64,000 nucleotides of DNA, taken from Escherichia coli. GTDB lineage: Bacteria > Pseudomonadota > Gammaproteobacteria > Enterobacterales > Enterobacteriaceae. Position 1 is the first letter of the stretch. Every line of letters begins with the position of its first letter. The DNA lies in assembly GCF_002854065.1 (NCBI RefSeq), contig NZ_CP024152.1; one strand, 5' to 3'. The position numbers were made by a program. This document shows, one piece after another, positions 36,001 to 39,000 of this stretch.

Positions 36001-39000
36001 CGCCTCCCCAATCCAGGTCCTGACCGTTCTGTCCGTCACTTCCCAGATCCGCGCTTTCTCTGTCCTGCCTGTTCGTTTATTACGCCGTTCCATGGGGATT
36101 TTCAGTGTGGCCACCATCGTCTGCAGCTGGCTGACGTACCAGGCGTCGGAGAGCGGAACCAGACGGTGAGTCTGCTGACCGGCGGGCATCCTTCCTGCCG
36201 TCCTGGCGGCTTTTTCTGTCCGCTGCTTCAGAGTGGCCAGTTGCACAAACGGATACGGAGACGTGAGCGAAAAATCCCCCCGCGTCAGCGCCAGTGCTTC
36301 ATTAATGCGCGCACCGGTGTTCCACAGTGTGGCCAGCAGCATTTTGCGGCGCAGATCCGGCACGTAATGGAGCAGGGCGCTCACTTCAGGGGCCAGCAGG
36401 TATTTTGGCAGTTCATCATGAACCATCGACATCTGGCGGAGTGCCAGCGCTGCCGGATAATCGATGGCAACAGGAAGCTGAGCGGCATCCCGGGCATGGT
36501 GGATCGGTGACGGCAGGTGCTGCATATCAGTGTTCACTCCACGGGGAAACGTCGGGCAGTTTTTCCACAACACGGTACTTTCCCGGATAACGGAGCTGGT
36601 TACCGCCACGCGTCCAGACGGTGACAACAAAACCCCCTCCCTGGTTGTTTTCGGGGAGCAGGCGATCGCACTGCTCACTCAGCATGTGGATCACAAACGG
36701 CGCATCGCTGCCGTCTTCAAATACCAGTTCCAGCGCATCGCGGCCATTCAGCGTTCCCTTACTGATGATGACGTACTCAGCCCCCCGCATCTCCCTGAGT
36801 AAATGTTTTGCCGCATCCGGGACAAGCAGCCTGGCTGCGCCGGCATTCCAGCTGAGGTAGACATATCCGGCCTGCGCCTGTACAGACTGCCAGTAATCCG
36901 TTCTGGCGACAGCCTGACCTTCATTCTCAATAAAAAACATGGGTGACTCCTTTTTTCTTTTCCGGGCAGGGACGGTCATGCGATAACGTCATCCATCATC
37001 ACTGCCCTTACCGTCACGCCGTCAGATAACATCATGCCGTTATCATCATCACCATGATAACAAGCATCCATATAACCACGCCGTTAAATTACCGGAGAGC
37101 CGTTTCCGTCAGATCCGACTTTCCGAAATATCACAACTTTCCGGAAGTGTACCACGCTGAGAAAATCATCATATCGCTGTTTTCCGCCCCTGCGCGGCGC
37201 ATCACAGGTCAGGGAGATGACACAACATATAGTGTCATCAGCAGCTGAATTCAGCACTACATGTTGTGCTGACAGGAGGTGGCGTTATGTGGGGGAAGAG
37301 GAAGATCCGTCTCCGCCGGAAACCGGATCTGCGCGACGGGAAACGGGCAAGTGATATGATAATTGAGCAATACACACAAAATCATATCAGATATGATTTT
37401 CATCATTGATGATAAAACCATATATGATATTATCAGAAATCAGGAGCACACAAATCATGCGGGATATTATTTTTACCTGTCAGAACATTATCAGATGGAG
37501 CGTGCAGGATGGATGAAGAAAGGGTGTTTTCACTCAGCTATGAGCAACTAACCCGAATAGCGGAAAAAAATATCCGTGAATGTGGGCTGGACAACCAGAG
37601 CGCCAGGTGTATCAGTGAACTGAAGGCCTCAGCTCTGCTGTGGTTGTGGTATGAACTGGCCATTCATGGTGCGCCACAGAACAATCACGCACAGGCCCGG
37701 GAACGCATCGATACCGATTATCAGCGCCTCAAAAAACTCATCTGGTCGGAGGGTGACAGTTAATGACTCAGAGCCGCCGACCGTCGCCACTGCAGCGGAG
37801 AGTGCTGATTGTGCTGGCTGCGCTTGATGAAAAACGGCCGGGCCCCGTGCTGACGCGGGACCTGGAACGGGTGCTGGAGCGAAGCGGGGAAGCCCCGGTC
37901 TACGGGCCAAACCTGCGCGCCTCCTGCCGTCGTCTGGAGGATGCCGGCTGGCTGCGTACCCTGCGCGCCCCGAACCTGCAGCTGGCAGTGGAGCTGACGG
38001 ACGCCGGCCGGGCCGTGGCACAGCCTCTGCTGCTGGCAGAACAGGACCGCCTCCGGGCAGAACAGCGTGCGGCAGAAGTCGTCGTACTGCCGCTGGTCCC
38101 GGCAGCAGGTCTGCCCGCAGACGGCACTTCTGCCACTGATCTGGCGGTGGAGCTGAACGGCATAACGTATCAGGCCTGCCGCGGGGATTTTGTGGTGCGT
38201 CTCGACGGCAGCACCTGTCTGCAGTTATGGAATAAAGAAGGCAGGGTGGTACGCCGGGAGGGCGATCCGCTGGAAGTGGCGCAGTGGCTGCAGGCCTGTC
38301 ATGACGCAGGAATAGAGGTTCGCGTACAGATAAATGAAAGTGCCGCTCCGTAAGAACACGCCTGTGCACGGTTTACACATCATCCCATGGTGGCAGCCGG
38401 TTAACTTTCCTGCGCCACCAGTGGAAAGAGGCCATGCACAGTCCGAACAAAAAACCACCCGTGATACTTATAATAATGGCCTCACCTGCCACCATTCCTG
38501 ACGGCCCCCAGTAGGTAAACCACATTACACATCCCCAGGAAATGCCCCATAAGCCCCCCGTCAGCACCGTGACCTGCCAGAACGGCATAAAGGGTAATGG
38601 CGGAAGCCGGATACCCAGCCGCCATAGAATACGCAGAAGAGGAGGGGCATAATTGCTCCGCCACATCTTTTTGCTGTCCATCAGGGCAATGGCCCGGGCT
38701 TTTTTCTGCTCAAAGGTCACAGGAGCACCTCCGTTCCATGATGTAAACGTGACACAGCTTATTGTTATTGATTATTATTATCATGCTGTGGTTATGTTGT
38801 CATGCATCAGTACACTGACAAAAGTGCAAAAGAAAGGAAAACTGGCAGATGAACAGAAAATATTATTTTAATAATATGTGGTGGGGATGGGTGACGGGGG
38901 GATATATGCTGTATATGTCATGGGATTATGAGTTTAAATACAGATTACTGTTCTGGTGTATTTCTCTCTGCGGAATGGTTTTGTATCCGGTTGCAAAATG

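Follow-up and report, generated by a model that had tools for sequence, protein, structure and literature searches.

The portable plasmid gene pair ydfA–ydeA of Enterobacterales: a candidate autoregulated repressor cassette with a conserved array of promoter boxes

What is the role of a two-gene module that sits on thousands of enterobacterial plasmids and that is labelled hypothetical in every annotated record we examined? The pair in question, named ydfA and ydeA in the R64/ColIb-P9 nomenclature and found among the genes of IncI and IncF plasmids, occupies positions 37509–38353 of a 64,000-nucleotide stretch of Escherichia coli DNA (NCBI RefSeq assembly GCF_002854065.1, contig NZ_CP024152.1), which is referred to below as the window. 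The two genes are known by name only, and no function has been assigned to either of them in the literature searched. An initial annotation of the window had described them as a high-GC (guanine-plus-cytosine) operon of suspected foreign origin, the larger product of which seemed to begin with a winged-helix segment. Here we arrive at a reading that we slightly favour over its negation, namely that ydfA–ydeA is an autoregulated repressor cassette in which YdeA binds GATATKAT boxes in front of its own operon. The array of these boxes and its conservation are the main new observation of this analysis.

Four such boxes lie 5′ of ydfA on the plus strand, starting at 37353, 37390, 37426 and 37463, i.e. 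with a spacing of 36–37 bp, and the corresponding spaced-pair pattern has three consecutive matches in the window versus 0.00 expected. Box 0 (37353..37360), the first of the four, is a lone GATATGAT half-site, where ATATGATAATT is invariant in all of the five aligned upstream regions. The second box forms part of candidate operator O1 (37381..37397), a perfect 17-bp palindrome of the structure ATCATATC-A-GATATGAT located just 5′ of a −35 hexamer; with up to three mismatches allowed, its pattern matches twice in the window versus 0.16 times expected. Degenerate 17-bp copies of this palindrome make up the candidate operators O2 (37417..37433; ACCATATA-T-GATATTAT), which overlaps the −10 hexamer, and O3 (37454..37470; ATCATGCG-G-GATATTAT), which is situated 3′ of the predicted transcription start. 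The promoter itself, detected on the same strand at 37406..37433 by a promoter scan, is sigma-70-like and consists of TTGATG, a 16-bp spacer and TG-TATTAT. In plasmid pUA1135, BPROM places a promoter 103 bp 5′ of ydfA and lets transcription begin 69 bp ahead of the ATG (PMC12111858), and these positions correspond to 37406 and approximately 37440 in the window. With O1 abutting the −35 hexamer, O2 lying over the −10 hexamer and O3 following the start, the predicted elements together present the classic layout of a repressed promoter. No terminator was found after ydeA.

Is this array a peculiarity of a single plasmid or a property of the gene pair? Boxes of the GATATGAT/ATCATATC type recur at about −157, −92/−83 and −46 from the ydfA start in loci of at least nine genera (Buttiauxella, Citrobacter, Enterobacter, Phytobacter, Superficieibacter, Klebsiella, Pluralibacter, Raoultella and Hafnia), and these conserved positions account for most of the motif copies per locus, in several loci even for all or nearly all of them. 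Two loci, L019 and L026, contain no exact boxes and retain a TATGAT core. Across the same loci, the recognition helix of YdeA, PVYGPNLRASCRR[ML]E.AGWLRTL, is almost unchanged.

This helix belongs to the N-terminal half of a two-domain protein of 196 amino acids, encoded on the plus strand at 37763–38353. An AlphaFold2 model of full-length YdeA, with a predicted local distance difference test score (pLDDT) of 88, shows a winged helix (residues 9–78) followed by a long helix (residues 80–104), a low-confidence linker and a compact domain (residues 126–190). The corresponding stretches of the gene are 37763..38074 for the basic N-terminal part with its isoelectric point (pI) of 10.9 (residues 1–104), 38075..38137 for the flexible linker of variable length (residues 105–125, with a pLDDT of 54 over residues 111–120) and 38138..38353 for the acidic, beta-rich C-terminal domain including the stop codon (residues 126–196; five strands, a helix and a further strand). 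The modelled three-helix core, recognition helix and two-stranded beta wing bear out the initial impression of an N-terminal winged helix, of which we are highly confident, and the recognition helix contains two nearly invariant residues, N50 and R52. No significant sequence match to YdeA was obtained in Pfam, NCBIfam or PDB; the Pfam winged-helix matches are below threshold (AbiEi_4 with 14.8 bits, a cut-off of 25 and E 0.031; PaaX with 13.6 bits and a cut-off of 24.8). Modelled separately, the C-terminal domain reaches a pLDDT of 90, with no match in BFVD at E ≤ 0.001 and with empty profile searches of PDB and Pfam. Its invariant residues are mainly glycine and leucine, which makes an enzymatic activity unlikely. 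Homologues of YdeA are 169–214 amino acids long, with insertions and deletions in the linker, and some chromosomal ones reach 300–430 amino acids by an additional C-terminal extension. That this extension might be a fused copy of a neighbouring gene was rejected, as BLAST gave no such match.

The partner gene, ydfA (37509–37763, plus strand), encodes an acidic protein (pI 5.3) of 84 amino acids, and its stop codon shares one base with the ydeA start codon within TAATG, just as the initial annotation had it. Shine–Dalgarno-like sequences precede both genes: GGAG 8 nucleotides 5′ of the ydfA ATG and GGAGG 10 nucleotides 5′ of that of ydeA. The overlap of start and stop, comprising 1, 4 or 8 bp, is kept in all main-clade loci examined. 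That the pair is an operon and that it is expressed, both of which the initial annotation had implied, is corroborated by the literature on related plasmids: reverse transcription polymerase chain reaction (RT-PCR) on pUA1135 found ydfA, ydeA and ibfA in a single transcript (PMC12111858), and transcripts of both ydfA and ydeA were detected for pS88 (PMC3438092). Matches to a ydfA hidden Markov model (HMM) lie directly 5′ of ydeA in 16 genome loci, ydfA is also present in every plasmid locus examined, and a very diverged version occurs in L005; distant ydeA-like genes are found without an adjacent ydfA.

YdfA itself has no family match in Pfam, NCBIfam, PADLOC or PDB. Its residues 1–28 are nearly invariant among plasmid alleles, while the remainder is variable. 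An RNA structure as the reason for these invariant first 28 codons was considered and discarded, as the leader and 5′ coding region gave a fold z-score of −0.37 and no Rfam match. The idea of a ribbon–helix–helix protein was likewise dropped: when profiles were compared to those of Arc, Mnt, CopG, ParG and omega, the probability was 0.1%, and profile searches of Pfam and PDB on this question found no match. As a separate observation, the alleles P0320, P0328, P0336 and P0337 carry Ala–Lys dipeptide repeats in a loop, ranging from AK and AKAK up to AKAKAKAK, and this variability suggests slippage at a short tandem repeat.

How could these elements work together? YdeA would most likely be a dimeric winged-helix DNA-binding protein that binds the boxes bracketing and overlapping the promoter of its own operon and thereby represses ydfA–ydeA together with any same-strand genes downstream; that YdeA is the box-binding protein and that its binding represses are steps which we infer. 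Autoregulation of YdeA through the boxes appears to us somewhat more probable than its opposite. YdfA, translated by coupling from the common mRNA, would probably be an accessory protein or modulator acting with or on YdeA, although our confidence in any specific role for it is low, and the acidic C-terminal domain of YdeA may be a module for protein interaction or signal sensing and not an enzyme. Operators and both genes would thus constitute a self-contained cassette that recombines among plasmids and chromosomes of Enterobacterales and heads variable cargo. In the window, the next gene is convergent, and so the cassette would regulate itself alone or act in trans here. As the model specifies the operators, a predicted promoter and a putative repressor, it would make the regulation of the region experimentally tractable. 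Should the cassette be only a self-regulating passenger, it would be an ordinary one. The DNA-binding fold is ordinary in any case, but no description of the fold of the C-terminal domain, of the small partner, of the periodic array of operators or of the behaviour as a cassette was found in the literature and libraries searched.

Several points weigh against this proposal. The evidence connecting YdeA with the boxes is correlative; the protein that occupies them could also be YdfA or a host factor. In Edwardsiella hoshinae (L027) the recognition helix is kept and yet the upstream region is replaced, and some plasmids (L014) are short of one 36-bp repeat unit that includes the −35 hexamer. By sequence, YdeA belongs to no curated regulator family, those of MarR, PadR and HxlR included. 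A comparison of the window with L013 shows 95% nucleotide identity in the promoter region and 97% protein identity for YdeA, while the 3′ two-thirds of ydfA are only about 58% identical in nucleotides; ydfA alleles have thus been exchanged independently of ydeA, which argues against tight co-evolution of the pair. Finally, with a convergent next gene and no same-strand cargo in the window, regulation alone leaves the benefit of the cassette here unexplained.

The two upstream variants deserve a description of their own. At about 3640–3720 of L027, eight tandem CTTGTTAT repeats and an unrelated open reading frame (ORF) of 85 amino acids take the place of the array and ydfA, next to a ydeA that is 75% identical. 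In L014 (about 4000–4060) and L017, aligned to 37386–37425 of the window, roughly 36 bp are missing between O1 and O2, such that the two operators are fused; this form occurs on ColV-type and some other plasmids, and the loss looks like a product of recombination between the repeats.

Which known systems does the cassette resemble, and could one of them provide a better explanation? A candidate operator of about 17 bp that is palindromic and overlaps the regulator's own promoter is also typical for MarR, PadR and HxlR repressors, from which the pair differs by the absence of a Pfam or NCBIfam match of YdeA above cut-off, by an extra C-terminal domain of 70 residues, by the coupled small upstream partner and by the periodic array of four boxes 36–37 bp apart. 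In its succession of an N-terminal winged helix and a small beta-rich domain, YdeA parallels the winged-helix–WYL regulators BrxR and CapW, and its cassette, like theirs, often comes first, ahead of defence or other accessory cargo. It is conceivable, albeit doubtful in our estimation, that YdeA is a sensor-regulator that represses defence genes and is made to release them by its C-terminal domain and/or YdfA upon infection or DNA damage, which would be a specialization of the autoregulated cassette proposed above. Co-transcription with the abortive-infection gene ibfA fits this idea, as does the roughly 5-fold stronger protection conferred by the whole operon, for which the plating efficiency was 0.01, versus 0.05 for ibfA by itself; on the other hand, ibfA has its own predicted promoter and functions when cloned alone (PMC12111858). 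Defence is also suggested by the match of ibfA to HEC-04, by a PDC-S06 gene divergently upstream in L013, by phage-inhibition genes adjoining the cassette in ColIb-P9 and by the long chromosomal forms, which come first in an operon that also encodes a DpdC-like protein and a staphylococcal-type nuclease. However, the majority of the downstream genes lack an annotation and are not among the known defence genes, the cargo is not consistently defence-related, and the next gene in the window is convergent. Furthermore, according to Pfam, YdeA is devoid of a WYL domain, it has no WCX dimerization domain either, and it differs from BrxR and CapW in having YdfA as a partner. A portable sensor-switch, in which a repressor with an undescribed sensor fold and a small partner silences the cargo until a phage or another signal arrives, is in our judgement unlikely. 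If true, part of the plasmid-borne immunity in approximately 40% of sequenced E. coli would stand under one common regulator, whose cargo would include the DpdC-like/nuclease pair as well as genes for abortive infection, ibfA for example.

Two small genes that are translationally coupled and whose promoter is covered by palindromic operators also show the layout of a toxin–antitoxin or addiction module, in which one protein would inhibit growth, the other would neutralize it, the winged helix would autoregulate and cells losing the cassette would be killed. An autonomous mobile cassette that is very common on plasmids and is located among stability genes and VapBC, RelE/ParD and YacAB pairs would suit such a function. 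So would the weak sub-threshold match to the winged helix of the AbiEi antitoxin: this autorepressor of a type IV toxin–antitoxin system likewise combines an N-terminal winged helix with a second domain, has inverted repeats at its own promoter and is carried on mobile elements. But the match remains below the AbiEi_4 cut-off, the cassette contains no AbiEii nucleotidyltransferase partner, and gene order and partner size are different. Moreover, searches of Pfam, NCBIfam and PADLOC for toxin or antitoxin families, and of PDB, gave no match to either protein, no conserved catalytic motif is present in either of them, with the conserved residues being structural, and distant relatives have ydeA-like genes alone. 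Both genes often occur as truncated or frameshifted copies, and the operon has been deleted and cloned with no difficulty reported (PMC12111858). Taken together, we regard an addiction module as quite unlikely. A regular array of four repeats at 36–37-bp intervals in a maintenance region, beside ParA, ParM and a resolvase, could finally be thought to be a centromere that YdeA coats in the manner of TubR or ParR, thus aiding segregation or pairing of the plasmid. This appears very improbable, since the cassette includes no cognate nucleoside triphosphatase, the ParA and ParM systems close by are equipped with partners of their own and do not accompany the cassette elsewhere, the repeats number only four and overlap a promoter, and chromosomal copies exist.

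Is the pair of foreign origin, as the initial annotation had suggested from its composition? The GC content of ydeA is indeed high (65.3% versus a window mean of 49.8%), but ydfA, at 50.2%, does not differ from the backbone, and so the description as a high-GC operon applies to one of the two genes only. Only 0.35% of all 591-bp windows in the 64 kb attain 65.3%, which puts ydeA at the extreme of the plasmid's range and not outside of it, as the maximum is 66.7% near 24.8 kb. This maximum lies in a block of about 14 kb (17000–31500) with 55–65% GC, and in a plasmid of about 50% GC such a block means that compositional heterogeneity is normal for this replicon. At third codon positions, the GC content of ydeA (GC3) of 0.68 is barely above the 0.66 of the adjacent recombinase gene, and the excess is largely one of first positions (GC1 0.79, GC2 0.49) and therefore reflects amino acid composition in large part. 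Of the residues said to dominate YdeA, Leu (28), Ala (25) and Arg (23) do so, but Pro (13) falls behind even Val (19); Lys occurs twice. In close relatives on all replicons examined, ydeA has 63–69% GC within surrounding loci of 46–52%, chromosomal copies included, and distant homologues have 44–50%. By these comparisons, high GC is a trait of the ydeA gene lineage, driven in part by its Arg, Ala and Leu content, and it is no evidence for a recent import into the plasmid. What stands of the foreign origin is a discrete mobile block with differing neighbours, for which no donor can be named.

Both genes are under purifying selection, with pairwise ratios of nonsynonymous to synonymous substitution rates (dN/dS) of 0.17–0.43 for ydeA and 0.24–0.48 for ydfA. 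Together with the transcripts and with ydeA homologues that reach down to approximately 30% identity, these ratios make ydfA and ydeA real genes. By contrast, the long antisense ORF of 246 amino acids on the minus strand (37629–38369), already considered spurious in the initial annotation, is not a gene but a by-product: one reverse frame of ydeA is free of stops, which is to be expected of a GC-rich gene, and it is the sense frame that is under selection, folds confidently in the model and has the homologues.

How far does the portable unit extend? On the plus strand, the whole cassette, i.e. operator array, promoter, ydfA and ydeA, covers 37320..38353. Nucleotide identity to four other replicons climbs from 25–60% to 70–90% at about 37320, remains at 77–100% to at least 38353 in two of the four and is below 50% there by about 38440; in L012 and L002 it is down to 32–67% already from about 38000, inside ydeA. 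The neighbours on the left and in the flanks are different in each case: a recombinase in the window, RelE/ParD and genes for resistance to copper in Klebsiella, a PDC-S06 ATPase in L013, colicin V genes on a ColV plasmid, YacAB on an E. coli chromosome and DUF4238 in ColIb-P9. Genes downstream on the same strand are frequent and varied, including ibfA (HEC-04) together with ProQ, an acyltransferase and several unannotated proteins. A conserved downstream partner was sought and not found, the cargo being variable and mostly unannotated. The suspicion that ‘ibfA’ of ColIb-P9 is the DUF6404 gene beside ydeA was rejected because of its position, about 1.5 kb distant and at the opposite side of the cassette.

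Two longer gene arrangements were observed. In Klebsiella IncFIB plasmids (L012, 4916–5674; L015, 3587–4974), a gene for a protein of 164 amino acids and an Hha-family gene come after the pair in the same orientation, with additional ORFs of 122 and 76 amino acids in L015; this possible operon may link the cassette to nucleoid-associated silencing proteins. On chromosomes (L002–L004, at 6001–8407, as well as L020, L021 and L026), a YdeA of about 400 amino acids is encoded at the head of a coupled operon, together with a DUF6884 protein and a nuclease of the staphylococcal type, and the DUF6884 protein matches DpdC of a 7-deazaguanine DNA-modification system in PADLOC (E 7e-41). Apparent fusions that could have indicated alternative domain architectures of YdeA turned out to be chimeras or frameshifts. 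In one chimera, P0203, the final 55 residues of YdeA are fused to an N-terminus resembling a nucleotidyltransferase, and the junction marks a point of recombination within ydeA; a substitution beginning inside this gene has been described for some IncI1 plasmids (PMC8004404). Truncated and frameshifted copies of ydfA and ydeA are plentiful in the databases.

In the window, the region around the pair is 100% identical to the conjugative IncI-gamma/K1 plasmid NZ_AP021916.1 of E. coli. To the left of the cassette, an ORF of 150 amino acids and a tyrosine recombinase gene are located on the minus strand; to the right of ydeA follow the convergent DUF6404 gene (38373–38720) and the genes for colicin Ia immunity and colicin Ia, and a maintenance region with ParA, ParM and a resolvase adjoins the pair. 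This is a hypervariable accessory region, which serves as a landing zone for colicin genes, phage-defence genes and blaCMY-2 insertions. On a larger scale, matches were found in 4632 of the 72,556 plasmids in PLSDB, chiefly conjugative IncI and IncF plasmids of Escherichia, Klebsiella, Salmonella and Shigella, and in 2127 of 5426 complete E. coli genomes, where 2879 of the 2925 matching places are plasmid-borne. Few uncharacterized modules of the resistance and virulence plasmids of enterobacteria are as common as the ydfA–ydeA pair. When one genome per species was scanned, relatives turned up in Enterobacterales only, apart from a few contigs of metagenome-assembled genomes or assemblies labelled as Firmicutes, which are probably contamination. 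The cassette-carrying contigs L025, L029, L036 and L041 are filed under Clostridia, Erysipelotrichia and Lachnospiraceae metagenome-assembled genomes and a Terrisporobacter assembly; L029 and L041 are 97–99% identical to the E. coli version, L025 and L036 are diverged (51–66%), and all four are probably mis-binned or contaminating sequences.

The name ydeA has a second meaning, as the chromosomal gene ydeA of E. coli encodes an L-arabinose exporter. In a 2026 association study of IncK2 plasmids, ‘ydeA’ was found to be enriched in plasmids from chicken and was discussed as this chromosomal exporter (PMC12987596), which may be a name collision, the ydeA of IncI and IncK plasmids being the winged-helix gene. 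Just outside the left edge of the cassette, at 37221–37272 of the window, two nested palindromes are present, CACAACATATAGTG / CACTACATGTTGTG and TCAGCACTACA / TGTTGTGCTGA, which may constitute an rfsF-type resolution site for the adjacent tyrosine recombinase.

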